Shown here: piece after piece, positions 18,573 through 62,975 of the stretch
How positions within the stretch are numbered: the stretch's first letter is position 1
How the letters are laid out: every line of letters begins with the position of its first letter
Assembly (NCBI GenBank): GCA_947626825.1
Contig: CANQTM010000006.1
Location: 6,757-70,756, forward strand
Length of the DNA stretch: 64,000 bases
Source of the DNA: an uncultured Bacilli bacterium
GTDB taxonomy: Bacteria; Bacillota_I; Bacilli_A; RFN20; CAG-631
Reading direction: 5' to 3'
The notes under the pieces: generated by a model
Databases searched by the model: none
Told to the model about the DNA's origin: nothing
What the model saw: only the letters and a program-made list of their open reading frames with translations
Made by a program: the position numbers and the translations under genes

Positions 18573-18606
18573 TTCGACAAAAATCGTTTCATGTCATGTC
18601 TATACT
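18573..18606 (+). promoter_or_regulatory. Spo0A box (TTCGACA) over a long-spacer sigma-A-like promoter
   Basis: TTCGACA at 18573-18579, 21 nt, then TATACT at 18601-18606. Confidence 0.4.
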
Positions 18607-18625
18607 ATATTTGGAGGTCAAAGAT

Positions 18626-38082: not shown

Positions 38083-38415
38083 GTAAGCGGTAATTCCACT
38101 ATATATAAATAAAAGAAGCCTTCTTGTAGAATAAAAGCAGGAGGGTTTTTAATTATGAATGCATATAATGAAGAATTTAAAGCAGAAGTTGTAGAAGAAT
38201 ATCAAAAAACAAAAAGCATAAAAAAAACATGTGAAAAATATCAAATAGCTAAGTCAACAGTGTACAAGTGGCAGAAAGAATTAAGATCAATAGAAGAAGG
38301 ATTGGTAAATATAAATAATTACCAATCAATAACTATGCAAACAGAAAGAAAAGAAGAAAAGATAGAGATAGAAATAAATGGGTATCAAATAAAAAATCTT
38401 AAAGGAAGCAAGTAA
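38083..38415 (+). mobile_element. IS66-like left end with truncated TnpA HTH (38155-38415)
   Basis: Begins GTAAGCGG; GGAGG RBS; YNEEFKAEVV...CEKYQIAKSTVYKW HTH and IEIEING motif; no tnpB/tnpC follows. Confidence 0.6.
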
Positions 38416-40986: not shown

Positions 40987-41022
40987 AAAAATGTAATTTA
41001 TTAGGAAGGATGAAATATATTT

Positions 41023-43998: not shown

Positions 43999-44018
43999 TA
44001 AGGAAGGGGAGAACTTAT

Positions 44019-45701: not shown

Positions 45702-45720
45702 TTAATGGGGGTATAGTAAT

Positions 45721-48700
45721 ATGAATAATCAAACATTCAATAAAATTAGCAATACCATATTACCAAAAGAGATGAAAAGTCTAAAAATATTTTTATGGCT
45801 AGGCATTATTTTATCTATAATTATTGATTCATGGTCACTTGCTTTTATTATTCAAGATGGATATAGTTCTATATATTATATTTATCCAATTGTTTTAATT
45901 GTTTTTGATGTTTTGTTTCTTATTTATTCTTTATTTGCAAATCAAAGATTTAAATATTCTTTATTTACTTTAATTTTTTATTTTCTATTTATAATTGTTA
46001 GCAGTTTGGCCTTATTAGTCTTTTATATAACATATCAAGAAAAGGTAATTGTAACTTTAATTGCTATGATTATATGGACAGCTATTCACTTATTTATCGG
46101 TATAAATACACTTATAACTTATATTTTTGCTTCATCACGTATTAAGAAAAAACAAATTATTATTTCAACATTATTTTTAATTTTTATGGGTTTATTTACT
46201 GGTGGCTTTGGTTATTACACTCAACAAAATGGCGTTTTTGGCCAAGGAAGAGTCGAAGTGGCTAAAACATTAGAATATAGCTATAATAATGACTTAAATG
46301 GTTATGAAGTTGTAAATACAATGAGTTCAAAAGGCAATACAATTATTGTTCCTGAAAAATTTAATAACATAAATGTTGTGGCTGTTGATAGTACAATTTT
46401 TACAGATAAAACTGTTAAATATGTAAGATTTGAAAAAACAGATAATGAAATAACATTTATTAATAGCGATATTGATAATGGACAAATTAATAATGATATT
46501 TCTATTTATGCAGAAGAAGAAAATTATATTCAAATAAAAAAAGCATTTGATGATTTGACATTAAATAATGACGCTTTTTTACAAATAAATAATAATTTTT
46601 ATCCAGAAATAGCTGATGATGAAGTTATGGTTTCATTTAGTTATGATGAACAAAGTTTTAATGATGCAAATCAAAGTTTACTTGGTGTATGGATTGGTAA
46701 AAAAGGTACTACATTTAATATTGAAAATGCTACAATTGTTCCAGAATATGCTAAACATATTGTTCATACAAATAAAAATGATTTAACTTGGAATTATAAT
46801 AACAATAATAAAAAAATATTATCTAATTTAGATTTAAATAAGAAAAGTATAACTAAAAATTATATTGGAAAAGACAGCATTCAAATAAAATTTGATGATA
46901 TTTATTCTATTAAAATTAATTCTGATAATGATGAAAAATATGAATTATCAGATAATGATCGTTTTACAAATAAAACTTTAAATTTAAAGTTAGCTACAGA
47001 AGAAAATATTAATAATTTATTTAATGTTTCTCAAAGAGATGGATTTGATTTAGAATGGTTTTCAAATTCAAATTATGATGTAGCAAGTAAAATTAATAAT
47101 TACACTGATTTTGTTTTAAAATCAAAATATGATATTGATGTGTATCCAAAATGGACATTACATACTCCAAAAATAAATAATATTACTACAAATTTATCAG
47201 CAGATAATGAAGTAATTTATGGTAATCAACTTATTTTAAAAAGTCAAATTCCTGATAAAATTGCAACTGGAATCAATTATAGATATACATGGATGCATAA
47301 TAATAATCAATATTCACCAACAAATGTTAATGATACAGTTAATTATCAAATTAATAGTGTTGTTTTAGAAGATGCTGGAAATTATATTTTGCAAATTGAG
47401 GCTTATTCAAATAACATTACATCATTAGTTTCATCATCATCAACACAAATAAATATTCAAGTTGCTAAAAGAAAATTGGATTTTTCTTGGAGTATTCCAA
47501 GTGAATTGATTTATAATGGTGAAAATCAATTTGATAAAATAAAGTGTACATATAATACAAATGATGTTGTTCATAATGATCAAATTACATTTTCATATAC
47601 TTCACAAACATTTATTAATCATGGAGATTATACATTAAATATATATTTAACTGGAGATACTTATAATAAATATTACATTGCTAGTGGCAAAGAAAAAACT
47701 AATTTTGAAATAAAACAAAGAGCCATTTCATTAATTTGGGATAGCAATACAACTTTTACTTATGATGGAGATTTTAAAGATGTTAAAGTAATCAATATAA
47801 CAGGACATGTTTTATCTGAAAGAGATGCTATTCTTTCAAGTATTATCTATTCTGGCAAACAAATAGATGCTGGTCATCATGAAATGACAGCCACTGTTCC
47901 AAGCGATTCAAATTATGTAGTAACTGCAAATAATTCATGTAATTTCGAAATTTCTAAAAGAGATTTATTAATTACTTTTAAACCTACTACAAAAACATAT
48001 GATGGTATTATTCCTCAATCATTTGATTACAATGTTCAAGAAAATGATATTGCTCCAACAGATACATTAAATAATATTTTAACATTACGTTACACAGGAG
48101 ATGCTGTTAAAAATGTTGATGTTGGAGTTTATGATTATGGAGCAGGATATGTTGCAAATTCTCTTGCAAAAAATTATAACATTACAATAATTGATAATAA
48201 ATTAACTATTATTCAACGTGATTTGAATATTACTTTTAATGAAAAAAATAAAACATATGATGGTAAAGCTTTAGATAAAAAAGATTTTACATATCGAATT
48301 GATAGTTTAGCCTCAAAAGATTCATTAGAACAAGTTATTACATTAAATATAAATGATGAATGTTTACAAGCAATCGATGCTGATACATATACTATTGATG
48401 CTACATATGAAGCAAAAGAATTAGCTAAAAATTATAATATTTCTATTGTTTCAAATAAATTAAATATTACTAAAAGAAATTTAAATATTACATTTAATAG
48501 CCAAAACAAAACATATGATGGCAAAATTTTTGATAATGAATTTACATATAATATTAATAGTTTAGCTTCAACAGATTCTTTAGAAAATGTTTTAACTTTA
48601 ACTTTAACTGGAACTGCTTTAACAGCTATTGATTCTGGAAAATATGAAATTAATGCTACATATGAAGAAAATGAATTAGCTAAGAATTATAATATTACAG

Positions 48701-50370
48701 TAATTCGTAATGAATTAACAATTAATAAAAGAAATCTAACAATTACACTTGATAGCCAAGAAAAAGTTTATGATGGCAAAGTATTTGATGGTGAATTTAC
48801 ATATAATTATGATAATTTAGCTGATACTGATAATTTAAATGAAGTATTATCTTTAGATTTTTCTAAAGCTAAAGAAATCATAAATTCTGGAGAACATTTA
48901 ATTAATCCAGAATGCAATGGTAATAGCAAATATGATAATTATAATGTAAATATTGTTGATAATTATTTAACTATAAATCTAAGAACTTTAACAATTAACT
49001 TAAATAATCAAGAAAAGATTTATGATGGTAAATTGTTTACAGAAGATAATGAATTTGATTATGAAGTAGTTAATTTGGCATCTACTGATAGATTAGAAGA
49101 AGTTTTAGAATTAACAATTCAAGGAAATGCTATAACTGCCATAAATCAAGGATCATATGAAATCGATGCACAATATGTACCAAAAAATAAAAGTAACAAT
49201 TATGATATTACTATAAATGGAGCAACTTATACTATTAAAAAGCGTCAAATTACGGCTAAATGGGACGATACTAATTCATTTATATATAATGGTACAATTC
49301 CTTCATATAAAATTGCTACATTAAATGGCGTGGTTGCTGGTGAAGAAAGTAACACACTTAATTCCATTCAATATAATATTTCAGATGGTAATGATGGAAA
49401 ATATGTTGGTGAACATATTGTTATTGCTTCATTACGTGCAGATAGCAATTATGAATTTGAAAATTCACAAGTACAAACACAATCAACATATTATGTTACA
49501 AAATGTGAATTACAAATTACATTTGAAATGCAAAATAAAACATATGATGGACAAATGATGAAAGAAAATGAATTTACTTATGAAGTTAATGGTTTAGCAA
49601 GAACTGATCAATTGAATCAAGTTTTAACATTAACTGTTACAGGATCTGCTTTAACTGCAATAAATAAAGGACAATATTCAATTAATGCTACATATAGAGA
49701 AAATACACTTGCCAAAAATTATAATATTAAAATTATCGGTAATACTTTAACAATTAATCCAAAAGAAATTAATTTAGTTTGGTCCCTTCCAGAATCAAAT
49801 TATATTTATAATGGCGAAAATCAATACCCTACAGTTACAAGAATTGTTAACGCTGTTGTAGGAGAAGAAGAAGATATTAAATCCGCCCTTGTATATCAAA
49901 ATTATGGAAAAGATGCTGGAGAATATGATGTTAGTGTTACATTAAATAATAATAATTATGTCATTATTTCAAATAATGACACATGCCATTATACAATTGT
50001 TAAAAGAGATTTAACTATAACATTTAGAGACCAAGAAAAAGTATATGATGGTAATAAATTTGATGAAGAAGAATTTACTTATGATGTTGTTGGTTTGGCC
50101 TCAACAGATCAATTAGATGAAATTTTAACATTAACACTTTCAGGAACAGCAATTGATGCAACAAGCGAAGGTAATGATTATATAATTAATGCTACTTATG
50201 AATTAACTTCTAAAGGTGAAAAAAATTATAATGTTACAATTGTTGCAGGTAAATTAATCATTAAAAGTAGTGATGAAGATTCTGATGAACCTGTTGAAAG
50301 TGAAATGTTAGATGAAATTAAATTATCAGATTTATTTGTAAATAAGGATGTGATTAAATTATGGGAATAA
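45721..50370 (+). CDS. Membrane-anchored surface protein: five N-terminal TM helices, Ig-like domain and tandem MBG-type repeats
   Basis: Five hydrophobic segments with RIKKK before the fifth; repeated KRxLxITFxxxxKxYDG...LASTDxLxxVL...NYNI units of about 85 aa. Confidence 0.85.
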   Translation: MNNQTFNKISNTILPKEMKSLKIFLWLGIILSIIIDSWSLAFIIQDGYSSIYYIYPIVLIVFDVLFLIYSLFANQRFKYSLFTLIFYFLFIIVSSLALLVFYITYQEKVIVTLIAMIIWTAIHLFIGINTLITYIFASSRIKKKQIIISTLFLIFMGLFTGGFGYYTQQNGVFGQGRVEVAKTLEYSYNNDLNGYEVVNTMSSKGNTIIVPEKFNNINVVAVDSTIFTDKTVKYVRFEKTDNEITFINSDIDNGQINNDISIYAEEENYIQIKKAFDDLTLNNDAFLQINNNFYPEIADDEVMVSFSYDEQSFNDANQSLLGVWIGKKGTTFNIENATIVPEYAKHIVHTNKNDLTWNYNNNNKKILSNLDLNKKSITKNYIGKDSIQIKFDDIYSIKINSDNDEKYELSDNDRFTNKTLNLKLATEENINNLFNVSQRDGFDLEWFSNSNYDVASKINNYTDFVLKSKYDIDVYPKWTLHTPKINNITTNLSADNEVIYGNQLILKSQIPDKIATGINYRYTWMHNNNQYSPTNVNDTVNYQINSVVLEDAGNYILQIEAYSNNITSLVSSSSTQINIQVAKRKLDFSWSIPSELIYNGENQFDKIKCTYNTNDVVHNDQITFSYTSQTFINHGDYTLNIYLTGDTYNKYYIASGKEKTNFEIKQRAISLIWDSNTTFTYDGDFKDVKVINITGHVLSERDAILSSIIYSGKQIDAGHHEMTATVPSDSNYVVTANNSCNFEISKRDLLITFKPTTKTYDGIIPQSFDYNVQENDIAPTDTLNNILTLRYTGDAVKNVDVGVYDYGAGYVANSLAKNYNITIIDNKLTIIQRDLNITFNEKNKTYDGKALDKKDFTYRIDSLASKDSLEQVITLNINDECLQAIDADTYTIDATYEAKELAKNYNISIVSNKLNITKRNLNITFNSQNKTYDGKIFDNEFTYNINSLASTDSLENVLTLTLTGTALTAIDSGKYEINATYEENELAKNYNITVIRNELTINKRNLTITLDSQEKVYDGKVFDGEFTYNYDNLADTDNLNEVLSLDFSKAKEIINSGEHLINPECNGNSKYDNYNVNIVDNYLTINLRTLTINLNNQEKIYDGKLFTEDNEFDYEVVNLASTDRLEEVLELTIQGNAITAINQGSYEIDAQYVPKNKSNNYDITINGATYTIKKRQITAKWDDTNSFIYNGTIPSYKIATLNGVVAGEESNTLNSIQYNISDGNDGKYVGEHIVIASLRADSNYEFENSQVQTQSTYYVTKCELQITFEMQNKTYDGQMMKENEFTYEVNGLARTDQLNQVLTLTVTGSALTAINKGQYSINATYRENTLAKNYNIKIIGNTLTINPKEINLVWSLPESNYIYNGENQYPTVTRIVNAVVGEEEDIKSALVYQNYGKDAGEYDVSVTLNNNNYVIISNNDTCHYTIVKRDLTITFRDQEKVYDGNKFDEEEFTYDVVGLASTDQLDEILTLTLSGTAIDATSEGNDYIINATYELTSKGEKNYNVTIVAGKLIIKSSDEDSDEPVESEMLDEIKLSDLFVNKDVIKLWE

Positions 50371-51518
50371 AATGTTCTGCTTGTCATTTTGAAATTGAAG
50401 AACCATTAATATTATTTAATGGAGATTGGGTATGCCCACATTGTAAAAAAAATATTTTAGACAAAATGGAAAATGTCAAATTTGAGATTACTGATGAAAA
50501 TGAATTTTTATTTAATTTATCTGAATCTTATTATTGTCAGGCAATTAAGGCAGAAAGTAAAAAACTAAAAGATTCATATATTGTTCAAGCAATCAAATAT
50601 TGTCAACAAGCCATGGATAAGAAACATCCTTATGCTTATTTTAGAATGGGCTATTATTTTGATAAAGATTATTTAGAAAACAAATGGGATGAAAATCGCA
50701 GATGTCAAATTGCTTATTCATATTATGTTGCTGTTTTGGAAGGAAAAATTGATGAAAGCAACAAAAAAAGACTAGAAGAAATTCAAGAAACAACAAAAGA
50801 ATTTTTATACACAATGTTATATTATTGGCCAGAGGCTCATGTTAATGATTCTAAATATTTTATTTCAAATAATGTAAAAAAATATGATTTAAAAGAATTT
50901 GAAAAGAAACAACAAAATACAATTATTTCTAATTTAGAAAGATTCAAAAATTCTTTACTTTCTTTAAATCAAGATAATGGAACAACATTGTGTGGTGTTT
51001 TTAAATTCGATAAAGAAAGTTTTGAACAATTTTTAAAAGATTATCGTAAAGATATAGAAAAGCCTTTAAAAGATCGAAAATGGTATAACATTTTAAAAAA
51101 TTCATCCAAGGTTATATTTTATTATAGTTCAAGCCAAGCAGCAATCAAAAAAGAAGCCGAATTATATTTCAATTGTTTTGCCGAAAATCAAAATAATTCA
51201 AATAATATAAGAAACGCATTGGTTAGTGAACAAGGTCGTGGTGATGATTTATTAGGATGTTTAGATGCCAAAGTAATATATGCATGTTTTATTAGTCAAA
51301 AGAAAAAACATAAATATTTTTCAACTTCACAAGTTTCTAAAATTAATAAATTTCTAATTGAAGATGATGAAAACAATCGAGAAAGCATATTAGGACATTT
51401 AGAAACTAAAGGAAATAGAAATTGGATTATTATTTATGATGATGATATTTATGCTCAAGAAGGCCGTAATATTAAAAATAAAGTTTATCAATTCGTAGAA
51501 GAATTATTGAAAAATTAA
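50361..51518 (+). CDS. Zn-ribbon plus Sel1/TPR-like protein
   Basis: N-terminal CSAC...CPHC; AIKYCQQAMDKKHPYAYFRMGYYF Sel1-like; start overlaps the previous gene. Confidence 0.65.
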   Translation: MGIKCSACHFEIEEPLILFNGDWVCPHCKKNILDKMENVKFEITDENEFLFNLSESYYCQAIKAESKKLKDSYIVQAIKYCQQAMDKKHPYAYFRMGYYFDKDYLENKWDENRRCQIAYSYYVAVLEGKIDESNKKRLEEIQETTKEFLYTMLYYWPEAHVNDSKYFISNNVKKYDLKEFEKKQQNTIISNLERFKNSLLSLNQDNGTTLCGVFKFDKESFEQFLKDYRKDIEKPLKDRKWYNILKNSSKVIFYYSSSQAAIKKEAELYFNCFAENQNNSNNIRNALVSEQGRGDDLLGCLDAKVIYACFISQKKKHKYFSTSQVSKINKFLIEDDENNRESILGHLETKGNRNWIIIYDDDIYAQEGRNIKNKVYQFVEELLKN

Positions 51519-51546: not shown

Positions 51547-53091
51547 ATGTTTGAAACAAAAATAAATAATATTAATAAAATATATTCACCTTATGGGCTA
51601 TCAATTAATTTTAAATTATCAAATTTAGATTCATATCAAGTAACAGCTTCTGAAAAATTGTTATTTATCATAGAAACTATAGGCTCAGAACAATTTAAAT
51701 GGTTACTGGTTCAAGAAAACACAAAAGAAGATTCTATTAAATTAATAAAAGATTGCATTAGTGAATTAAAAAAAATAAAAAGCTATAAATTTAAAGATTT
51801 AAATAAAATTAAAAAATTTGAAGAAAGGTATCAAACAATAATGGAAGGACAAAACAATTTAAATTTAAAAAATGTCGTTTTAGATTGGAATAATAAAGTT
51901 AAAAAAATAATAAGTGAAGAAGTTGCTAAACCTGAATATGCAAATAGTCCCGCAACTTTAAGATCTATGAATGTTGCTTTAAATATAATTAAAAATATCG
52001 AAAATGAAATTCAAATGGTAACTGATGAAAGTTCTGATTTTGCAAAATATAGTGCTTTAAACGCATGTAAGGCATTATATAATTGTTTAGATTATTTATA
52101 TAAAAATAATGGACAAGCAGAAGGCGAAAAAGGTGCATTTAGAAAAAATTGTGATATTGTTTTATCATATGTTAAACAATGGGCTGAAAATAAAATAGAT
52201 GCAAATCAAGATTATTCTACATATTTTCCTATTATTACATTAGAAGATTTTGTAAATGGTACTACAAAAATTGAATATCAAGTAAACAAAAAAATTTCAA
52301 AAAACGAATTTGAATCTTTAGTTCAAAAACATCAAAAAATTGCGCAAGTCTTTTTGAATTTTATAAATAGAGACTTATATTTAAACGCATTTGATATCAT
52401 TTTAGAAGCAGCTGAAAGATTAAATAATGATTTTGAAAAACCAAGAGAAACTTTAAATGAAATACAAGAACTTGAAGATAAAATTAAACAAAAAGAAAAG
52501 AAAATTAAAGACTATAAAGCACAAGTTCGACTTGGAAAAATTGCTGAAAATGATCCTAAAGTTTATGCTGAATGTCAAACTTTACTTGCCCAAATCAATG
52601 TAGATAAAAAGACATTAAACAACATTATGAAAATTAATAAAGCAGATATTCAAATGTATAAAAATATAATTGAAGTTACAACACTTGTTAATACAATTAT
52701 TGCAGAATTAAAAACTATTAAAAATAGAGAAATATTTCCAAAATTGATTTCTAAAATAGATGTAGGAATTTTTAATAAAATTAAATTAGGATATGATTTA
52801 TCATCAAAAGATATAGATACGTTAAAAGAAGTACATAATTATGTTCAAGAAATGATAGAAAATTATGTCAATAATCATGATAAAGATCGTTATAGTTTGG
52901 ATGAAATAGATATTAAAGAAGATAAATATGATTTAGAAGAAGATAAAACAAATGTTTATGAAAATGAAAATATATCTATTTTGGATATAGACGTTGGCGA
53001 TGAAGATGAAGATGTTGAAATAACAAATGAAGAAAACGAAAATACAGAAGAAGAAAAAATATCACTAAAAGATTTATTTGATGAAAACTAA
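51547..53091 (+). CDS. Hypothetical helical/coiled-coil protein with acidic C-terminal tail
   Basis: Heptad segment LNEIQELEDKIKQKEKKIKDYK; D/E-rich last 70 aa; AAGGAG RBS. Confidence 0.7.
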   Translation: MFETKINNINKIYSPYGLSINFKLSNLDSYQVTASEKLLFIIETIGSEQFKWLLVQENTKEDSIKLIKDCISELKKIKSYKFKDLNKIKKFEERYQTIMEGQNNLNLKNVVLDWNNKVKKIISEEVAKPEYANSPATLRSMNVALNIIKNIENEIQMVTDESSDFAKYSALNACKALYNCLDYLYKNNGQAEGEKGAFRKNCDIVLSYVKQWAENKIDANQDYSTYFPIITLEDFVNGTTKIEYQVNKKISKNEFESLVQKHQKIAQVFLNFINRDLYLNAFDIILEAAERLNNDFEKPRETLNEIQELEDKIKQKEKKIKDYKAQVRLGKIAENDPKVYAECQTLLAQINVDKKTLNNIMKINKADIQMYKNIIEVTTLVNTIIAELKTIKNREIFPKLISKIDVGIFNKIKLGYDLSSKDIDTLKEVHNYVQEMIENYVNNHDKDRYSLDEIDIKEDKYDLEEDKTNVYENENISILDIDVGDEDEDVEITNEENENTEEEKISLKDLFDEN

Positions 53092-53106: not shown

Positions 53107-55095
53107 ATGGCTATCCAAACAGTTCCTATTTTAATTAAAATTTCAAAAGAAATTTTCTTAAATTGTGTTGATGAAGCACAAATTTTTGAAGCGGAAACAA
53201 ATATTAAAAACTATCAACGAAAATATAGTTATGTCTTTGAAAGTGAAGATTCGCTAAAAGTAAAAGAAGAATTAGATGGTTGGATAATTAAATTACATTT
53301 GAAATTTTTATATATAAATTATGTTAATAATTTTTCAAAAGAAAATGAATTTTTAGATTATTTAAATAATACAATTCAACAAGCTCAAGAAAAAGGCTAT
53401 AAAACTATTTTAAAAATCAGCAATGCTTTTAAACAATTTGTAGAAGCATTTCATCCAATTTTTGAGCAATATCAACAACTAGCAAGTAAAATTAATAATC
53501 TTGATTATAATTATAATACACAAGAATGTGAAATCATAAATCAGCAAATAGATAATTATATTGAAAAATTTAATAATGTAAAAAAAATATTAGATGATGT
53601 TTTTGGTAATGAGCAAGATGGTGTCATTGTAAAATTACCTAATAACATTGCTAAAATAAAAGAGAATTTAGAAAATTATAAGAAAAAACTTACAAATCGT
53701 GTTAATGAAATAAGATTTGAAAAATATTCTAAATATATCAGAAAATTAGAGCAAATATATCCTGATAATCCTTTATATTATCCAGAACTTGGTTATGGTG
53801 AAAGCAATATTGCCTCAATCGTTGTAGTAAATTCACCAATTCGTGATGAAGTTTTATTATCAATAAAAGGTTATTGCTTAAATAAAAAAATTAATATGTT
53901 GGTTTTAGATATTGTGGATCTACTTGTTGATATTAATGAAAAAGATATTGAAGAATTATTCTTATATATTTCAACTTGTTTTGATTGTGAGGGCCTATTT
54001 ATTGAAAACTTAAATGAATTACATACAATAAATTTGGTTAATAAATTATTTGAAGAAATATTAAGTTATGCTAGTAATCATATTGTATTTTTGAGTTATG
54101 AAAAAAGTGATGGCAAATTATATGATGAACTTTTTAACTATATAATGGACACTCAAAAATCTTCAACTAATTTAATAAGAAATTTTTATCTTTCAATGCC
54201 AGATTATGGCCAATTTATTCAAGAATTAGAAAAAAATGGAATTATAGATTTTGATAATATTACTGAAAAAGAAACTATTAAAAGAAATATGCCATTTACA
54301 GGTTTTGTTGGTTTAAATGAAATAATTAGAAATAAAAATAATTGGTTTGAAATTGGTAAAAACATTTCTTCTTCTCGTGATAATTTAATTGTTAGAAATT
54401 ATATTAAAAAGCTTAATAATCAAAGATTATTTATTAATAATGAATGGGGAAGTTTTAGTGAAAATGAATTTATAAAAACAGATAATCGTGGTAATTATGA
54501 TTATGATTCAATTTCAACTCCAATAAGAGATAATATTAAAAAAATTATAAATTGTCCTTGTGATTTCTTTTCAAAAGTTGGTATGGCAGTTCAATATTGT
54601 TTAACAGCTGGTCAAGATATCTCAATTTGGACACAAATATCTCTTGAAGAAAAAGAAAAAAGAACAACAGAAGCTACAAATTTAGTTTATTTGCTTTTAG
54701 GAATTTCTTTTAAACCTGAAATAAAATTTTTGGAAACATTAGAAGAAAAAAACACTCTTGGATTATGTTGCAATGAAGGAAGAGAAATTCATTATAAAAG
54801 CGGTCTGGTTAAAACTAATGTTATAGATTTAATGGATACAATTTTACATGAATCTTACCATGCTTTTCAACATCATGCCATTTCTAATAAATATTATGAA
54901 TACTATTTTACTGATTTAGGCGTTACTCATAGCCGAATAAATACATGGAATGAAAATTTCAAAAAATATATTTCACCTGACAAAAATAAATATGATTATT
55001 ATAGTGTTCAAATTGTTGAAAGTGATGCACGAGCTTTTGCACAAGATTGTATTGATGCTTGCCAAAGTGCTTGGAGTACGATTGATTTTGATTAA
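53107..55095 (+). CDS. Coiled-coil plus degenerate AAA-like domain plus C-terminal zincin metallopeptidase
   Basis: TILHESYHAFQH...VESDAR; central IVVVNSP...MLVLD...LFIENLNEL looks like a P-loop fold lacking the Walker A Lys. Confidence 0.7.
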   Translation: MAIQTVPILIKISKEIFLNCVDEAQIFEAETNIKNYQRKYSYVFESEDSLKVKEELDGWIIKLHLKFLYINYVNNFSKENEFLDYLNNTIQQAQEKGYKTILKISNAFKQFVEAFHPIFEQYQQLASKINNLDYNYNTQECEIINQQIDNYIEKFNNVKKILDDVFGNEQDGVIVKLPNNIAKIKENLENYKKKLTNRVNEIRFEKYSKYIRKLEQIYPDNPLYYPELGYGESNIASIVVVNSPIRDEVLLSIKGYCLNKKINMLVLDIVDLLVDINEKDIEELFLYISTCFDCEGLFIENLNELHTINLVNKLFEEILSYASNHIVFLSYEKSDGKLYDELFNYIMDTQKSSTNLIRNFYLSMPDYGQFIQELEKNGIIDFDNITEKETIKRNMPFTGFVGLNEIIRNKNNWFEIGKNISSSRDNLIVRNYIKKLNNQRLFINNEWGSFSENEFIKTDNRGNYDYDSISTPIRDNIKKIINCPCDFFSKVGMAVQYCLTAGQDISIWTQISLEEKEKRTTEATNLVYLLLGISFKPEIKFLETLEEKNTLGLCCNEGREIHYKSGLVKTNVIDLMDTILHESYHAFQHHAISNKYYEYYFTDLGVTHSRINTWNENFKKYISPDKNKYDYYSVQIVESDARAFAQDCIDACQSAWSTIDFD

Positions 55096-55115
55096 AAAAG
55101 GAGGGCCTTTCATAT

Positions 55116-58100
55116 ATGGAAGAAAAATTACAAAATATGGTTTCTGATTTACTGCATATTGATGAAGGAACGACCAATAAATTATTAGATTTATATGCTA
55201 ATAATGGTGTGGATACATATTTTTTATCAAATGATAATGTTGATAATATTGGAACATACACATTAAATGTTGTCAAAAACCATATTGGTAAAATTGCCAA
55301 TACAGCATTACGAAAAAGTGCCAAAATTGTTGAAAAAGAACAATTTATTAGTAATGCAACTAATCTAAATTATTTTGATTGGAAATGTTCAGATGGTACT
55401 GCTGATTCACAAAAACTCGATAAATTTATTACTGATGCTTATTCGAATACTATAAATAAAGGATTTAACCCATTATTTTTAAGTGTTGGTGCTTTAAAAT
55501 GGAAAGTAAAAATCGGAAAAGATGGTATTCAAGATGTTTTTAAAGATGTTTACACTCCATTAATTTTATTTCCAATACAATTAATTAGAGGCGGTTCTTT
55601 AACTGCACCAGTTAGTATTGGTTTTGTAAATACTGATATTTATTTAAATCCTGTTTTATATTATCGAATAAAAAATGATTTAACTAATGGTGAAGAAATT
55701 GCCAAAAGAATGCCTCATCCAAATTATATAAAATCAAATATCAATCAAAATTTATTTGATGAAAATAAATATATTAATGAACCTATTAATATTGATATTT
55801 TAGGAGATGGTAAAGAATATTTTGATGAAGTAAAAAGATATATTAATGAATATAAGCATGATGATGCTGTTTTTGAATTTGATGAAAATATAGTGGCATT
55901 TTTTAAATACAATCATGGTGAATTGTGCATGTATTATGATATCAAGAATCATGAAGATTTAATACTTGAACATCCATTAGTTAAAAAAATGTTCAATAAA
56001 CAAACTAAAAAAGAAATTTCTAATGAAAATATCAAAGCAACTGCTAAAAATGTTTTAGAAATGGATTCTATTCAAAATCAAATGATTAGTGATGTTATCA
56101 ATGGTGAATCAATGATCATTAAAGGGCCACCTGGAACAGGAAAAACTCAAACAATTACAAACATGATTGTTTCATTACTTGAACATAATAAAAAAGTTTT
56201 AGTTTCTTCTAAAAAGTTAGCTGCTTTATCAGAAGTTTATGCAAAAGTTCCAGAAAACATTAGACATTTCTTATTATTACTTGATTCTGAAAGTGAAACA
56301 GAGGCATCAAAAAAAGATCCTAAAGAAATAAAAGATCAATTAGAAAATATTATTAATAAAAGTAAAAAATACCAACCAATGGCAAATCTTGATCAAGATA
56401 TGGTGGCTGCCTTAAAACAAAAAGATCAAATTGAAAAAGAAATTAATAATTATATTAATCTTTCTTCCATGCCAAAATATGCTAATAAATCATATTATGA
56501 TGTGATTAATGAATATTTATCTTTTAAAGAAATAGATGAAAATATTCCTAATGAGGTTTTTATTAATAAAATAAAGAAAATTGATGCTTTAGAATATAAA
56601 GAAACAAGATATTTAGTAGAAAAATTAAATAATTATTTTGTTAAGTTAACAAATAACTATGAACATGCAGCTAAATATTGTCCTTGGCTTTATATTTCTA
56701 ATAAACATAATTTAAATGATATAGCAAATGTTTATCAAAAAATAAATAATATTTTTAATGAATTATTAGAAAATATTAATAAATTATCTTTAAATGATGT
56801 TCAAAAAGGAATTATAGATAATTTATCATTGTATGCAATTTATTTTTTAGGTTTTAAAAATGTTTCTTTAGAAATTATTGAAAATGTTTATAATAATTTT
56901 GATGAAAAAACATTTACACAATTAAAAAGTTGTTTCAAAGAACTATTAGATGTTAATAAATTATCAATGTTGATTAATCAAATTGATGATTATTCTAAAA
57001 ATATTTCATTAGATAATTTTGATTTTAATGAAATAATTCGAAAACTAAAATCATTCAATTTAGATGAAAATTTGACTAATTCATTTATTAGAGAATTAAA
57101 AATCACTCAACAATTAATTGATAGTATTTTAATAACAAAAGATTTTGATCAAATTTTATTTATTCATAGAGTTAAAGGATATTTTGAAAAATCACAATTA
57201 TTAACAAAATTACAAAATGAATGTATTGAAATATTTAAAGATAATTTATCATTAGATGATACAAACAAAATAATATCAGCTAATAAACATTTACATAAAT
57301 ATTTAAATAATTCCAAAAATAAAATATCCCTTTTTGATATTTCAGCCAAAAAGGCTTTAAAACAAATTCGAAATTTATTTAAAAATCCTAATCTAGATGT
57401 TTTACATATTGTATATGGCTGTGATTTATTTAATCAATTCATAGAAGCCAAAAATGAAATTGAAAATTTATATAAAGAATTACAAGAAGGAATTTTTTAT
57501 AAATATAACGAAAACGAATTTGCATTATTAAATAAACAACTTAAATATTTTGATTATGATGTAAAATCATTAGCTAATTTAAAAAACATTTTGAATGTTA
57601 CTGATGAATATTTAAATATTCTTAATCAATTAGATAATAAAAATATTGAAACAGTAAAAAATGTTATAGAATGTTATAAGAATTTAGCAATTATAAAAAA
57701 TATTAAAAATTTAATTGAGCCATATTATAAAGAAAATTGTTATAAATATAAAGAATATTTAATGTTTGCTTTAAAATTTATGTCAATTTATGATATCAAA
57801 TTATCAAATAATATGTCAGTTTCAAATTCTTATTTCAAAGACGTTGTAGATTTAGTTAGTAAAATTGAATATTTGAATAATCAAATTAAACTTGATGATA
57901 TTATAAAATATGTTGAAAGTTTCCAAAAAGAACTTATAGATAATGATTTATTTAATTATTATTCAAAAACTGAAGTTGGTTATTTCAAAATTAAAACAAT
58001 TAAAATATTGCAAAATGAATTTGAAAGAACTGATTTGATAGATGCAGCAAAAGATTATCAAATAAATATTAATAATTATGAATATAAAGATAATCTACCA

Positions 58101-59750
58101 ATAAATGATTTATTTGAATATTTAATTAATTCAAAAGAACATTTTGAAAAAGAATTTAATATTTTAAATCTTTTTGAACATCTAATTTATAAAAAACTTA
58201 TTAAGATGTATCAAAATGATATGAATCTTAATTTTGCTCATTCAGTAAGTTTCAAATTAAATAATTTGTACAATCAATATGAAAATATTGAAAGCGAAAT
58301 AAGATTATTAAATCAAAAATATATTGAAAGAAGTCTATATAATAATATTAATAAAGATATTTATCTACATTGTCGAAGTAATGACAATATAAGACAATTA
58401 TTTAATAATAATGCCAATGCAATCATGGCATTAAAGAAATGTTTGATTTTATCTCCAGCTACTGCTAGCTTATTGTTTACTAAGTCAGATATCTATAATA
58501 ATTTTGATGTTGTTATTGTTGATGAAGCTAGCCAATTAGAACCTGTTGAAATATTGCCTATATTATTTAGGGCAAAACAATGTGTTATTGTTGGTGATGA
58601 ATGGCAAATGCCACCAATTGAACATTTTAAAACTAAAAGAGTAGCCTTAATTGAAGATTATGATGCAGAATTGGTTCCTGATTCATCAGTTTTATCACAA
58701 TTTTTAAATAATAATGCTTTCAAAATATATGAATTAGAATGTCATTATCGAAGTAGAACAGAATCATTAATCCGTTTCTCACAACATCTATTTTATCCAA
58801 AATTGAAAACATTTCCAGCCCCAGAACCTAAAAAAGATGGCCTTGGTTTTGTAGATAAATATATCGCAAATGGTTTTTCAAATGATGGTAGAAATTTGCA
58901 AGAAGCTGAAGAAGTTGTTAATTGCATAAAGAAACATTTTGATAAATATTTTCAAAACAACGAACTTTTAGAATCTTTAGGAATAGTTGCCTTTGGTGAA
59001 AAGCAAATTGCCCTAATTAATGAAAAAGTTGAAAAAGATGTTGAACTTAATAAAAAAATAAAACTAGCTATAGAAAATAGAAAGAAAAATGTTGTTCCTG
59101 AAAAAGTCATATTTTTCAAAACAATTGAAGATGTTCAAGGCCAAGAAGCAGATCATTTAATATTATCTTTAACATATGGTAAAAATAAAGATGGTAAAAC
59201 ACAATTAACTTTTGGTCAATTGAATAGAGATAAACTTGGAAAATGTATTTTCAATGTCGCAGTAACAAGGGCTAGAAGTTCTATAACAGTTATCCATTCA
59301 ATCAAACCAAATGAGATTGATGCAACTTCATCTAAAATAGGATATATTAAAGATTATCTTGAAATTGTTGAAAAATTTGCTCAGGAAGAAAATCAATTTG
59401 TTTGCAGTGAACCCAATAATTTTGTTAAAGATGTAGGTAATTATATTCTTTCTTTAGGATATTTTCTAAAAGATCGATTAGTTTATAATTATGGTGTTAC
59501 AGATGGCTCAATCCGCATACCAATTGCTATTTTATCAAAAGATAAAACAAAAGCAGTGTTGGGAATTTTCTGTGAAAGAGAAAAAGATTTAAAATACAAT
59601 TATATTGATTATAATATTAGGTATTTTAATATTCTTAAAGATCATTGTGGCTGGAACATTCATAGAGTTTTTGCAAGCGATTGGGTTAATGATAAAGAAA
59701 ATGTTTGTAAAGAATTAAAAAATATAATTTTAAAATATTTGAATTTATAA
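55116..59750 (+). CDS. DUF4011-like N-terminus plus SF1 (UPF1/DNA2-like) helicase with large insert plus degenerate Vsr/MTES_1575-like domain
   Basis: NPLFLSVGALKW...TPLILFPIQL; KGPPGTGKTQTITN; FDVVIVDEASQ; VGDEWQMPP; HYRSR; VQGQEAD; NVAVTRAR; GWNIHRVFASDW. Confidence 0.9.
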   Translation: MEEKLQNMVSDLLHIDEGTTNKLLDLYANNGVDTYFLSNDNVDNIGTYTLNVVKNHIGKIANTALRKSAKIVEKEQFISNATNLNYFDWKCSDGTADSQKLDKFITDAYSNTINKGFNPLFLSVGALKWKVKIGKDGIQDVFKDVYTPLILFPIQLIRGGSLTAPVSIGFVNTDIYLNPVLYYRIKNDLTNGEEIAKRMPHPNYIKSNINQNLFDENKYINEPINIDILGDGKEYFDEVKRYINEYKHDDAVFEFDENIVAFFKYNHGELCMYYDIKNHEDLILEHPLVKKMFNKQTKKEISNENIKATAKNVLEMDSIQNQMISDVINGESMIIKGPPGTGKTQTITNMIVSLLEHNKKVLVSSKKLAALSEVYAKVPENIRHFLLLLDSESETEASKKDPKEIKDQLENIINKSKKYQPMANLDQDMVAALKQKDQIEKEINNYINLSSMPKYANKSYYDVINEYLSFKEIDENIPNEVFINKIKKIDALEYKETRYLVEKLNNYFVKLTNNYEHAAKYCPWLYISNKHNLNDIANVYQKINNIFNELLENINKLSLNDVQKGIIDNLSLYAIYFLGFKNVSLEIIENVYNNFDEKTFTQLKSCFKELLDVNKLSMLINQIDDYSKNISLDNFDFNEIIRKLKSFNLDENLTNSFIRELKITQQLIDSILITKDFDQILFIHRVKGYFEKSQLLTKLQNECIEIFKDNLSLDDTNKIISANKHLHKYLNNSKNKISLFDISAKKALKQIRNLFKNPNLDVLHIVYGCDLFNQFIEAKNEIENLYKELQEGIFYKYNENEFALLNKQLKYFDYDVKSLANLKNILNVTDEYLNILNQLDNKNIETVKNVIECYKNLAIIKNIKNLIEPYYKENCYKYKEYLMFALKFMSIYDIKLSNNMSVSNSYFKDVVDLVSKIEYLNNQIKLDDIIKYVESFQKELIDNDLFNYYSKTEVGYFKIKTIKILQNEFERTDLIDAAKDYQININNYEYKDNLPINDLFEYLINSKEHFEKEFNILNLFEHLIYKKLIKMYQNDMNLNFAHSVSFKLNNLYNQYENIESEIRLLNQKYIERSLYNNINKDIYLHCRSNDNIRQLFNNNANAIMALKKCLILSPATASLLFTKSDIYNNFDVVIVDEASQLEPVEILPILFRAKQCVIVGDEWQMPPIEHFKTKRVALIEDYDAELVPDSSVLSQFLNNNAFKIYELECHYRSRTESLIRFSQHLFYPKLKTFPAPEPKKDGLGFVDKYIANGFSNDGRNLQEAEEVVNCIKKHFDKYFQNNELLESLGIVAFGEKQIALINEKVEKDVELNKKIKLAIENRKKNVVPEKVIFFKTIEDVQGQEADHLILSLTYGKNKDGKTQLTFGQLNRDKLGKCIFNVAVTRARSSITVIHSIKPNEIDATSSKIGYIKDYLEIVEKFAQEENQFVCSEPNNFVKDVGNYILSLGYFLKDRLVYNYGVTDGSIRIPIAILSKDKTKAVLGIFCEREKDLKYNYIDYNIRYFNILKDHCGWNIHRVFASDWVNDKENVCKELKNIILKYLNL

Positions 59751-59774
59751 AAATTTAATGGAGGACAAGTACAA

Positions 59775-60524
59775 ATGGAAGAAGTTAAAGTTAATGAAAT
59801 GGAATTAAATGAAGATGAACAAGAAATAGAAAGAATCCATAAAAGAAATGAAATGAAAAGGGCTATTAACAAAAAAAGAAAGCTATTACAAGATAATAAA
59901 GCTAATTTACTTGAAACAGCCTCAAAATATTTAGAAATTTATGGAGAAGATTCTCAAATTGTTCAAGTTTTTGCTACTTTAATAGAAATTATTAGTTCAA
60001 TTGAATCAGTTATTGATGTTATTGTTGGAGTTCAAACTGTAGAATTGTTTATGCAAGATGCTATAGGCGTAATTGATGATTGTTTAAATTTATCTAATTT
60101 AATTTTTGCAAATGAAAGTCAAGAACAAACTGTAAAGAAATCTTTCTTTAAGAGATTAAAAGAAAAAAGAGAAATTAAACGTCGTGCTAAAAATATTAAA
60201 AGAAATCTAATTAACAAAGTAGAAGAGATTCGATTTAATTTATCTGTAAGTAGTTCTGCAATGAGTGGTATTATGGGTGTCTTTAATAAATTCCCAAATA
60301 TGGTAAATAAAAGTTTTGGTAAAAGCATGAACACATTTACTAGTGCTAATTCTAAAAAGAAAAAGAAAAAAGGTAATACTGGTCCTTCAAGTGGCATATT
60401 ACAAATTAAAAAATATGTTGAAGAAAAAAATCAAGAAGGAAGCACTAACAACGATTTTGATAAACCATCTAATGAAAAACCATCAAGTGGTACTCCAAAA
60501 AACACTGGTGTTGGTGGTTTATAA
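59775..60524 (+). CDS. Hypothetical all-helical coiled-coil protein with disordered C-terminus (ESCRT-III/PspA-like candidate)
   Basis: 249 aa with long amphipathic helices and a low-complexity tail; immediately upstream of the MIT-like AAA ATPase. Confidence 0.6.
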   Translation: MEEVKVNEMELNEDEQEIERIHKRNEMKRAINKKRKLLQDNKANLLETASKYLEIYGEDSQIVQVFATLIEIISSIESVIDVIVGVQTVELFMQDAIGVIDDCLNLSNLIFANESQEQTVKKSFFKRLKEKREIKRRAKNIKRNLINKVEEIRFNLSVSSSAMSGIMGVFNKFPNMVNKSFGKSMNTFTSANSKKKKKKGNTGPSSGILQIKKYVEEKNQEGSTNNDFDKPSNEKPSSGTPKNTGVGGL

Positions 60525-60543
60525 TTAAGGAAAGTGTACATTT

Positions 60544-61743
60544 ATGGCAACAATTGCAAAAGTTGAAAATAGTTCTTCAAACAATAACAATAAGTCAAAT
60601 AATGTCAAAAAAAATGTTTCAATTGATACCATTCAAGCAGAATATGAAAGCACTAAATCACAAATTAGAAAAATTTTAGGAAAAACTAAAGATAAAAGTG
60701 ATTTAAAGGATGAAGATAAAAATTCATTAAGAAGTTTATATCTAAAAGCTGCACAATATGCCAAGACACTTAGCGAACGTGTAACTGATGAAAAAGAACA
60801 AGTTACATATAAAGACGAGTGGAAATTTTTAACTGAACGTGCAGCAGGATATGGTAGCACTATTAACAACACAATTCCTAGTACAACATTTGATGATGTA
60901 AAAGGGTTAGAGTCAGTTAAAAAAATTGTTAAAAGTTTTATGTTTATGTTACAACATGATGATATTATAAAACATTATAAAATGGAAAGTGGCTTTGGAA
61001 TGTTGATGTATGGCGCTCCAGGAACTGGAAAAACAATGTTTGCTGAAGCTTTAGCAAATGCTATGAATTTACCTTTATTTATTGTTACTCCAGCAGATAT
61101 TTTTAAATCATATGTTGGCGAATCAGAACAAGCAGTTAAAAGAATTTTTGAAGAAATTGATGCTTGTGATGATGGTGCAATTTTATTTGTAGATGAATGT
61201 GAAAGCATTTTCAGTAAAAGAACAAATGATACTAAAGATTATAAAGCTGCAGTAACTACAGAATTACTTCAAAGAATAAATGGTTTTGGTGTAAATGGCT
61301 CTAAAAGAGTTCTTGTAGCTGCAACAAATAGGCCAGATGTTATTGACCCTGCTTATTTACGTTATAAAAGATTTTCTCATTTAGTACATGTAACACCTCC
61401 AGACAAAGAAGCAGCCACAGCCATCATTTATGGAAAAGTTAGTCAAGAAATGTTAGAGCCAGGATTTAATGTTTCTGAAATTCCTAATATGATTATTAAA
61501 GATAAAGTTGTTGATGGTATTACAATTCCTTATGAAAAAGGAGATAGATATTCAGCAGCTGATTTGTGTGGCATTGTTGAAGAAGCTTGTCGCTTTGCTA
61601 TTGAAAAGATTCAAGAAATGGGATTAAATCATCCAATTCCATTGACTAGAGAAATGTTTCAAAATGCAATAGCTAAAATACCACCAAGTATTACTGTTGA
61701 AACTTTAGAATTATATAATAATTTTAGAAAAAATATTGATTAA
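60544..61743 (+). CDS. Single-ring classic AAA+ ATPase with N-terminal three-helix MIT-like domain (Vps4-like architecture)
   Basis: TFDDVKGL, MYGAPGTGKT, KSYVGESE, ILFVDECE, AATNRPDVID..LRYKRF, YSAADL, C-terminal PPSIT...YNNF; N-terminal LYLKAAQY...LTERAA. Confidence 0.85.
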   Translation: MATIAKVENSSSNNNNKSNNVKKNVSIDTIQAEYESTKSQIRKILGKTKDKSDLKDEDKNSLRSLYLKAAQYAKTLSERVTDEKEQVTYKDEWKFLTERAAGYGSTINNTIPSTTFDDVKGLESVKKIVKSFMFMLQHDDIIKHYKMESGFGMLMYGAPGTGKTMFAEALANAMNLPLFIVTPADIFKSYVGESEQAVKRIFEEIDACDDGAILFVDECESIFSKRTNDTKDYKAAVTTELLQRINGFGVNGSKRVLVAATNRPDVIDPAYLRYKRFSHLVHVTPPDKEAATAIIYGKVSQEMLEPGFNVSEIPNMIIKDKVVDGITIPYEKGDRYSAADLCGIVEEACRFAIEKIQEMGLNHPIPLTREMFQNAIAKIPPSITVETLELYNNFRKNID

Positions 61744-61766
61744 AAAAAGAAAGGGGAGATAGTTTT

Positions 61767-62975
61767 ATGCCAAAGTTAGATGACAAAATTGAAAATAACA
61801 ATCAATCAACGATTGAAGATGAAGATATCAATTTTGTTTTGCCAGATGGCTATGATGGAATAGAATGTCTTCGCGAATATATAAAAAATAAAGAAGACGA
61901 ATCTCAATCCATTGTCTCTCTTTCTAATCAATTACTATCTCAAAAATTAAAATATCAAAAAACAAAAAAGACATTAAAAAAGCATGAATTTTATGCTTTG
62001 GAAGCAAAAGATAACGTAAAAGCTCAATATTGGCATCAAAAATTAGATGAAATAGATATTAAAATCAAAGATTGTGAAGAAAAAATTTTTGATTATACAT
62101 TTAAAATTGATGCAATTAACAAACAAATTTATAAATATAAATATCAACTAGCAATATATTATGAAAAAGAAATATATAATACATTATCAAAATATCCATT
62201 TCATAATTCCTGTTATCAGGTAACTCTAAAAGATTTTGATAAAAAATTTTCAGATTTTAAAGATAATGATGAATCAAATGCGTTAATCATGACTCAACCT
62301 ATTCATAGTGGGAGTGCTCCAGTTTCTAAGAAAAAGGTGAATCTAGATCAAATAAAAACTTTAACTGGTTATTTTCTAAATCTTGAAATAGATATTGATA
62401 GTTTATTAAAAATAAAATCAATACCTAAAACTCCTTTAAAGAAAATGAGTTCATCTAATTATAAACAAGGTGAATTACCAAATGATACACTTTATGAACA
62501 TAAAACCATTAGTATAATTTGTTTAGTCATAGAATGTTTAATGCAAATTAAATGTAAAGATGAAGATTATAATGAAATAATGGAACATGCAAATAATCGA
62601 ATTAGCAAATTTTTTAAATTATCACATTATGAATATACTGGTAATAATAAATATATTAGAGAAACATTACTTGATGATTGTATTTTAAATGATTTTATAT
62701 TTAAAATTGATCATCGTAAAAGTTTAGTTGAATATGTATATAATCAAAAAGATGAAAATAAAATATATGATTATATAAATGAATGCATAATTTTGTATAA
62801 TAGCTTAATTTATGATAATCGTTTAAAAAATACGAAAGCAATTTTACGTAGTCAAGATGCTAAAAAAGAATATTTTAACTTTACTAAAAAAATATCTTTG
62901 GAAAACAAATTAACATTTAATGAATTTAAAAATACAATTGATAAATTACAAGAATTAAATTATAAAACAACATAA
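61767..62975 (+). CDS. Hypothetical protein with N-terminal coiled-coil, last gene of the operon
   Basis: GGGGAG RBS; heptads KLDEIDIKIKDCEEKI...; no motif recognised. Confidence 0.7.
   Translation: MPKLDDKIENNNQSTIEDEDINFVLPDGYDGIECLREYIKNKEDESQSIVSLSNQLLSQKLKYQKTKKTLKKHEFYALEAKDNVKAQYWHQKLDEIDIKIKDCEEKIFDYTFKIDAINKQIYKYKYQLAIYYEKEIYNTLSKYPFHNSCYQVTLKDFDKKFSDFKDNDESNALIMTQPIHSGSAPVSKKKVNLDQIKTLTGYFLNLEIDIDSLLKIKSIPKTPLKKMSSSNYKQGELPNDTLYEHKTISIICLVIECLMQIKCKDEDYNEIMEHANNRISKFFKLSHYEYTGNNKYIRETLLDDCILNDFIFKIDHRKSLVEYVYNQKDENKIYDYINECIILYNSLIYDNRLKNTKAILRSQDAKKEYFNFTKKISLENKLTFNEFKNTIDKLQELNYKTT

Follow-up and report, generated by a model that had tools for sequence, protein, structure and literature searches.

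The stretch of DNA analysed here comprises 64,000 nucleotides of contig CANQTM010000006.1 (assembly GCA_947626825.1, positions 6,757 to 70,756) from an uncultured Bacilli bacterium, and is referred to below, at its full length, as the window. It is AT-rich, with a G+C content of about 25%. Near its end are two adjacent genes, which encode a helical protein (the partner) and an AAA+ ATPase. A preliminary description made from the sequence suggested that they form a possible bacterial ESCRT-III/Vps4-like pair. The architecture of the ATPase agrees with that suggestion, but the partner does not, and the pair does not stand alone: it closes a larger cassette. We propose that the ATPase is an AAA+ remodeller with a docking-tagged partner. 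The two genes are as follows.

59775-60524, + strand: helical partner, an open reading frame (ORF) of 249 aa (ORF list)
60544-61743, + strand: single-domain classic-clade AAA+ ATPase, an ORF of 399 aa (ORF list, Pfam, and PDB and NCBIfam matches)

The genes are separated by 19 nt, and a GGAGG sequence lies 9 nt upstream of the ATG of the partner gene. The partner gene is directly 5' of the ATPase gene in all five loci compared, which are the window, genomes G008, G335 and G367, and the metagenome contig L022. Two independent searches, one with the ATPase and one with a profile of the partner, returned the identical 3 of 399 genomes of the class. Partner and ATPase are thus an obligate, co-inherited pair, and both ORFs are conserved and are more than chance ORFs. 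They are located where the preliminary description had placed them, and all the strings that it quoted were found in the ATPase: LYLKAAQY (residues 65-72), LTERAA (96-101), LRYKRF (272-277) and PPSITVETLELYNNF (380-394).

Conservation of the ATPase was analysed in an alignment of 38 family sequences, which is the basis for the invariant residues given below.

60622-60849, + strand: MIT-like three-helix N-domain, residues 27-102 (AlphaFold model, VIA search, language model, alignment)
61012-61035, + strand: Walker A (GAPGTGKT), invariant in 38/38 except A158 (at least 90%)
61105-61128, + strand: pore loop 1 (KSYVGESE), with Y190, V191 and G192 invariant in 38/38
61180-61206, + strand: Walker B (ILFVDECES), with D217 and E218 invariant in 38/38
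61357-61374, + strand: arginine fingers with R-x-x-R spacing (LRYKRF), R273 and R276 invariant in 38/38
61585-61731, + strand: end of the lid and C-terminal helix matching Pfam Vps4_C (Pfam, PDB)

Pfam identifies a lone AAA domain (PF00004, residues 153-283, E 4.1e-31), which bears out the single-AAA protein described previously, and no fused peptidase domain. The sensor-1 residue N262 is also invariant in all 38 sequences. Because the Walker A and B motifs, the pore loop, sensor 1 and two arginine fingers are intact, the protein is predicted to be an active, ring-assembling AAA+ unfoldase of the classic clade. There are at least 120 full-length relatives at 60-65% identity, in metagenome-assembled genomes of gut Clostridia, with source names that include Candidatus Coproplasma, Borkfalkia and Roseburia.

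In the PDB, the ATPase is closest in sequence to VAT, Cdc48 and p97 (whole-sequence E 1.4e-62; this value combines two aligned stretches, the better being that of the D2 domain at 119.5 bits). LRYKRF aligns with RAGRF of VAT D2, and the spacing of the arginine fingers is that of Cdc48, PAN and FtsH. The preliminary description had cautioned that this is the RxxR of the Cdc48/FtsH type and not the RRR of Vps4; this is correct, and LRYKRF is invariant in all 38 sequences. The NCBIfam models give 176.7 bits for CDC48, 124 for PAN, 107.7 for CdvC and 104.7 for FtsH, all far under their cut-offs. Foldseek was run with a poor model of the whole ATPase and returned only Cdc48/p97 rows at template modelling (TM) scores below 0.2, which is uninformative for the N-domain. 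Searched alone against a collection of genome contigs, the ATPase found only one unrelated AAA protein, at 23% identity. Identities as IetA, TRIP13, SpoVK and CbbX were considered and rejected, the match in each case being confined to the AAA core and the scores far under the cut-offs.

The N-domain is predicted by AlphaFold, run on the single sequence, to consist of helices at residues 27-45, 56-79 and 83-102, with a predicted local distance difference test (pLDDT) of 72-94; the remainder of the model is below 50. It is strongly conserved among the 38 sequences, and is connected to the AAA module by a joint of about 10 residues. A language-model search with residues 20-110 placed MIT (PF04212) clusters at ranks 1 and 3, with scores of 0.78 and 0.76. 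The results point towards the MIT-like N-domain of the preliminary description in that the three helices are confident and the nearest named clusters are MIT, but these scores are below 0.9, the level set by the tool as conclusive, and count as leads only.

The C-terminus also has a resemblance to Vps4. The Vps4_C family matches residues 348-396 of the ATPase of the window at E 0.005 (17.2 bits, with a cut-off of 21.3), and is matched at E ≤ 0.01 by 34 of the 38 family members, the best at 1.4e-6. The last 115 residues have six matches in the PDB (E 0.047-0.57), and all six are meiotic-clade proteins: CdvC (4lcb, E 0.047), two of fidgetin-like 1 and three of Metallosphaera Vps4. Both results point towards the Vps4-style terminal helix noted previously, at levels below those that the tools treat as conclusive; the protein of the window itself is under the Pfam cut-off.

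The resemblance has clear limits. With the CdvC model of NCBIfam (NF041006) the ATPase scores 107.7 and 105.2 bits against a cut-off of 650, and it is outscored by the FtsH of the same genome (129.3 versus 105.2 bits). Vps4 and CdvC carry adjacent arginine fingers of the RRRF type in the second region of homology (SRH), which the ATPase lacks. Thirty AAA proteins were scanned from the loci retrieved; these are Cdc48, PAN, FtsH or unlabelled, and none has MIT or Vps4_C at E ≤ 1e-6. We read the sequence as a Vps4-like layout on a Cdc48-like engine, which on these scores and motifs is not inside the Vps4/CdvC family as currently defined. If the docking and threading mechanism proposed below holds, this combination of a Vps4 layout with a Cdc48 signature would be an intermediate of the kind put forward for the origin of Vps4 by Makarova et al. 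(2024; PMC10936438).

The partner has the following features, in which H1 to H3 denote the three long helices.

59778-60272, + strand: three long antiparallel helices, residues 2-56, 61-117 and 124-166 (AlphaFold)
60141-60206, + strand: aromatic-basic motif at the H2-H3 turn and the start of H3, YGFFxRxKxKR...RNN (family consensus)
60354-60371, + strand: lysine patch KKKKKK, with K195 and K196 invariant in the four-locus alignment
60390-60449, + strand: conserved short amphipathic helix, residues 206-225 (pLDDT 81-93)
60450-60521, + strand: disordered linker rich in Ser, Gly, Pro and Ala, and C-terminal tip (108 tails)

The partner belongs to a sizeable family. The profile finds at least 179 cluster representatives at E ≤ 1e-3, and 145 at E ≤ 1e-10, nearly all of them about 200-270 aa long, with a few shorter fragments. 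Neither the ESM Atlas, which gave no usable match, nor a word-index search, in which the partner matched only itself, added to it. An AlphaFold model based on an alignment of 108 sequences has a pLDDT of 78.4 and a predicted TM score of 0.70, and agrees with the helical protein with a flexible tail described earlier: the three long helices are followed by a short one at 174-180 and by the helix at 206-225, and then by disorder. The H1-H2 hairpin has a net negative charge in 105 of the 108 members (median -9), while H3 together with the lysine patch is net positive in every one of them (median +15). The partner is thus modelled as a three-helix coiled coil, with an acidic hairpin packed on a very basic H3. 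Conserved surface loops, YGE(D/E) and YGFFxRxK, are present at the two ends of the bundle.

The short helix of the partner follows the pattern S-x-A-x-x-hydrophobic-hydrophobic ... G, with the glycine at column 222 present in 86 of 105 sequences. It is followed by the disordered linker, 30-60 residues in length, and by a tip that in most of the family is DISDIL or IDDIL. The pattern hydrophobic-[SDGEN]-[DG]-hydrophobic is found within the last 8 residues of 80 of the 108 tails.

There is no sign that the partner is a member of ESCRT-III. The protein of the window matches no Pfam family at E ≤ 0.1 and no NCBIfam or PHROG family, and its sole PADLOC row is a cyclase model at chance level (0.019). 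No Pfam family is matched by more than two of the 108 members, and Snf7 and PspA are absent among the 25 shown of the 39 Pfam families that they match (E ≤ 0.01). The partner profile finds nothing in the PDB below E 0.013, and no ESCRT-III chain. With hhalign, the 108-sequence profile aligns to bacterial PspA with a probability of 0.2% over 13 columns, the PspA profile being a shallow one of four genes from genomes of the same class. PF04012 has no match in the genome of the window.

Structural comparisons gave a similar result. Two VIA fold searches with the partner had no ESCRT-III or PspA chain among the top 50. Foldseek gave no PDB match at E ≤ 0.001; I-BAR, Pil1/Lsp1 and SNX-BAR head the list at E 0.29-0.8, as weak BAR-like matches over the whole length, and the only ESCRT-III row is CHMP2A-CHMP3 at rank 34 (E 3.7). 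The ESCRT-III fold consists of a long hairpin with shorter packed helices; the model has a long hairpin and a third long helix. ESCRT-III proteins have a basic N-terminal core and an acidic C-terminal half, and the order of charges in the partner, with its acidic hairpin and basic H3, is the reverse. A conserved tip and a conserved short helix are present in the place of a C-terminal MIT-interacting motif (MIM), but they do not fit the MIM1 or MIM2 consensus. The previous assignment of the partner to Snf7/PspA therefore has no support from Pfam, hhalign, VIA or Foldseek.

On the basis of these sequences and predictions, we hypothesise that the ATPase unfolds or disassembles its partner, and in so doing resets or triggers the cassette, a proposal that we hold to be just on the probable side. 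The N-domains of the ring would dock on the C-terminal tip of the partner, on its short helix, or on both. The linker would then be fed into the pore of the ATPase, and ATP hydrolysis would unfold or disassemble the partner, or an assembly that it forms on DNA or membrane via the basic helix. This would switch or reset the upstream helicase and membrane modules.

The predicted anatomy fits such a mechanism. In the model the partner is built like a tethered client, with a folded core, the conserved short helix, a linker, and a tip that is conserved in 80 of 108 members, and the three-helix N-domain is a plausible docking domain. Remodelling is favoured over degradation because no peptidase is fused to the ATPase, and because, of the four long loci (those of the window, G008, G335 and G367), one showed no HExxH protein in the stretches fetched. 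By analogy, the pair would work according to the logic of Vps4 and ESCRT-III (dock, thread and disassemble) without being a member of either family.

Several observations weigh against this proposal. The tip in the window, TGVGGL, is a rarer variant that is without the acidic residues of the majority motif, and the short helix could pack on the core of the partner itself instead of the motor. The defence role of the cassette is argued only from resemblances of neighbouring genes and from a patchy distribution, and no gene of the cassette reaches the curated cut-off for a named system.

If the docking and threading mechanism is true, the ATPase would combine the domain layout of Vps4 with the catalytic signature of Cdc48 in one bacterial AAA+ remodeller, and it would act as the switch of a large cassette of gut Firmicutes that contains a surface-exposed membrane protein and two helicases. 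If it is false, the pair is another uncharacterised AAA+ ATPase with an accessory protein. The partner family, which numbers at least 179 clusters and has a clear short linear motif, is in addition an orphan fold family.

The pair forms the end of a series of genes on one strand, which overlap or are separated by very small gaps and together make up a cassette of ten genes. The other genes are listed here.

38965-51518, + strand: upstream module, encoding proteins of 673, 991, 560, 1549 and 385 aa (Pfam etc.)
38965-40986, + strand: weak Hsp70-like protein of 673 aa, which heads the cassette
51547-53091, + strand: p514, a helical protein with an acidic disordered tail, with a positional counterpart of 473-495 aa in all four long loci
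53107-59750, + strand: optional module, consisting of a 662-aa HExxH protein and a 1544-aa DUF4011/SF1 helicase/REase_MTES_1575 protein, present in the window, G008 and G335

The 673-aa protein may be a very diverged ATPase of the actin/Hsp70 fold, to judge from a three-sequence profile that has 34 matches in the PDB (E 0.048-0.83), of which 33 are Hsp70/DnaK nucleotide-binding domains. This is a weak lead, and the Pfam HSP70 family is found in only one of the three members (E 0.095). The 991-aa protein is a SNF2 helicase with a Cys-rich C-terminus, resembling BrxH, DrmD, DpdE and ZorD. It is accompanied by a Cys-rich protein of 560 aa, a protein of 1549 aa with N-terminal membrane helices and repeats (45721-50370), and a 385-aa protein with a zinc ribbon.

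In the optional module, the 662-aa protein (53107-55095) has the sequence HESYH near its C-terminus and a weak SprT-like match (E 0.069); in the window, G008 and G335 it is found together with the DUF4011 helicase. The helicase matches PDC-S37 (9.9e-126) and Hhe (4.3e-57) in PADLOC, and matches the anti-phage ProA model of NCBIfam at 1.3e-122, which is under the cut-off of the model.

The modular organisation was compared by BLASTP against genomes G008, G335 and G367, within the stretches fetched from each. The whole set of the cassette is present in G335. G367 carries the upstream module together with a p514-type protein and the partner-ATPase pair; the stretches fetched contain no counterpart of the 662-aa protein and no DUF4011 helicase between the gene for a 1282-aa membrane protein and the ATPase gene, and a 996-aa partial relative of the helicase is found upstream only. 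In G008 there is a reduced form of five genes (locus L007, G008:C1, 9283-19757), which encode the p514-type protein, the HExxH protein, the DUF4011 helicase, the partner and the ATPase; the fetched stretches of this genome lack the SNF2 and membrane module.

In L022 the ATPase gene is followed by housekeeping genes, and therefore the 402-aa ORF that follows it in the window (61767-62975) is probably outside the unit. This ORF has no family match, and no counterpart 3' of the ATPase gene in G008, G335, G367 or L022. A scan for promoters and terminators gave counts equal to those of shuffled sequences, and no + strand terminator inside the cassette.

The p514-type proteins of the four loci have weak homology (one BLASTP match at 1.5e-4; 18-23% identity), and their tails are not conserved in sequence. 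A p514-type alignment gave hhalign probabilities of 0.1% with PspA and 0.5% with the partner family, and in the word-index search p514 matched only itself. The 1549-aa membrane protein and p514 each end in an acidic tail in which the sequence L-x-D-L-F occurs (…IKLSDLFVNK… and …ISLKDLFDEN), and the p514-type protein of G367 ends in …LNLFEN. Tail ends of this type could be further docking peptides.

These proteins are relevant to a different mechanism, in which the partner would not be the substrate of the ATPase but a tethering adaptor: the tip would hold it on the N-domain of the motor, while the core presents another protein of the cassette, such as the p514-type protein or a helicase. In SspB, the tethering adaptor of ClpX, a folded domain is followed by a long disordered linker and a terminal docking peptide, and the layout of the partner is the same. 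The conserved surface loops of the core are consistent with such a role, as is the fact that each of the four long loci has a p514-type protein whose disordered tail is acidic, but the weak homology of the p514-type proteins and the variability of their tails argue against it. We consider this mechanism unlikely, though it deserves some weight.

It is also possible, but quite unlikely, that in this pair bacteria have a functional counterpart of Vps4/ESCRT-III, either convergent or too diverged to be recognised. The partner would in that case polymerise or dimerise into a scaffold resembling BAR or ESCRT-III proteins, attached via its basic helix either to DNA or to the inner face of the membrane, and the MIT-like motor would dock on its tail and strip it off. 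The pair would then serve as an ATP-driven on/off switch for the cassette, which also encodes a giant membrane protein and two helicases.

In the C-terminal peptides of SSB and FtsZ, a tail acts as a hub. The tip of the partner might similarly recruit the helicases of the cassette or a host protein, with the ATPase acting elsewhere. It is acidic and hydrophobic and follows a low-complexity linker, the very basic helix could bind nucleic acid, and the cassette does encode two helicases. However, neither helicase is present in every locus (the SNF2 helicase was not found in the stretches fetched from G008, and in G367 the cassette lacks the DUF4011 helicase), whereas the ATPase gene adjoins that of the partner in all five, and we regard this role for the tip as very unlikely.

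True homology with ESCRT-III/Vps4, which was the reading of the preliminary description and implies membrane remodelling and a common ancestor with archaeal CdvB/CdvC, draws on the MIT-like N-domain, the Vps4_C matches in 34 of 38 sequences, the meiotic-clade chains that are the only PDB matches of the C-terminus, and a partner gene upstream of the ATPase gene as in the archaeal loci of Makarova et al. (2024; PMC10936438), but is highly improbable given the R-x-x-R fingers, the CdvC score of 105-108 bits against 650 (with the FtsH of the genome higher, at 129), the reversed charges of the partner, and the negative Pfam, hhalign, PDB and VIA fold searches (the last over the top 50 matches).

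The docking and threading mechanism can be placed among known systems as follows. Like Vps4/CdvC with ESCRT-III, the pair has a single AAA domain behind a three-helix N-domain, a terminal helix matched by Vps4_C, and a partner gene directly upstream; the partner combines a helical core with a flexible linker and has a conserved element at its C-terminus. The pair differs in its R-x-x-R fingers, in the very short linker between N-domain and AAA domain, in a CdvC score far below the cut-off, in a partner with three long helices, reversed charge, no link to Snf7/PspA and a tip off the MIM consensus, and in its location in a helicase-rich cassette. Cdc48, VAT and the D2 domain of p97 have the highest sequence similarity to the ATPase; the SRH pattern is identical in type, and the C-terminal segment PSxS...Y..F is similar. 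They have two AAA domains and not one, and the ATPase has no match to the CDC48_N double-psi barrel or to CDC48_2, both of which are found in the true Cdc48 proteins of the loci retrieved.

ClpX and SspB offer a similar arrangement, in which a long disordered linker connects the folded domain to a terminal peptide, and this peptide docks on the N-domain of the unfoldase. The AAA clade is a different one, the sequences are unrelated, and there is no ClpP-type protease here. For the partner alone, the BAR, I-BAR and Pil1-Lsp1 domains provide the weak fold matches over the whole length. IetA, which belongs to the IetAS defence system, also has a classic AAA core (PADLOC IetA 8e-31); the match is to the AAA core only, the NCBIfam IteA score is 95.3 bits against a cut-off of 510, and there is no subtilase partner among the neighbours scanned. 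The cassette as a whole is comparable with Zorya type I, which likewise has a membrane component, a SNF2-type helicase and a patchy, island-borne distribution. No homologue of ZorA or ZorB was found in it (the only match is one to ZorA at 0.0048, on the 662-aa protein), and it has other accessory genes.

By its genes, the cassette resembles a system of defence or conflict, and it is a candidate for a new anti-phage or anti-plasmid system. The literature that was found, excluding supplements, contains no description of the pair or the cassette. The CoCoNuT paper (PMC11090510) deals with McrBC systems, which are absent here.

The ATPase family is rare among the kin of the host, a lineage of low G+C content, and is patchily distributed. 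It is present in one of 60 relatives of the host and in 2 of 398 other genomes of the class, and at the phylum level the same 3 of 399 are found. We read the cassette as horizontally mobile. A tRNA-Gln gene (22819-22893) and a tyrosine integrase gene (26489-27406) are located about 12-16 kb upstream of it; the window contains no repeat of the 3' end of the tRNA-Gln gene, and no att site was found there. Searches of plasmid and phage collections with tblastn gave no match at E ≤ 1e-40. A viral scan, in which 80 loci were kept, gave no match above 39% identity and none over the whole length, the similarity being that of AAA proteins in general. A metagenome scan based on the ATPase alignment relied on generic Walker motifs, and of the 80 loci kept only L022 was a family member.

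DNA nearly identical to positions 55116-62975 of the window is present in metagenome runs of the gut, of rabbits among others, which come from at least three studies; five runs contain half or more of the sampled words, and none of the runs listed is of RNA.

Other genes of the window lie upstream of the cassette. A 730-aa RCC1-repeat protein (E 4.7e-102) is encoded at 18596-20788, before the tRNA-Gln gene. A 427-aa protein that combines BspA-type leucine-rich repeats with Sel1 repeats (23967-25250) and a DUF1848 protein (25267-26193) are encoded between the tRNA-Gln and integrase genes. A 635-aa MACPF/perforin protein (28054-29961, E 2.1e-10) has as its neighbours BspA-type leucine-rich-repeat surface proteins at 30262-32862 and 34446-37385. 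Just before the cassette is an 86-aa ORF (38155-38415), with an N-terminus that we take to resemble the helix-turn-helix of a transposase.

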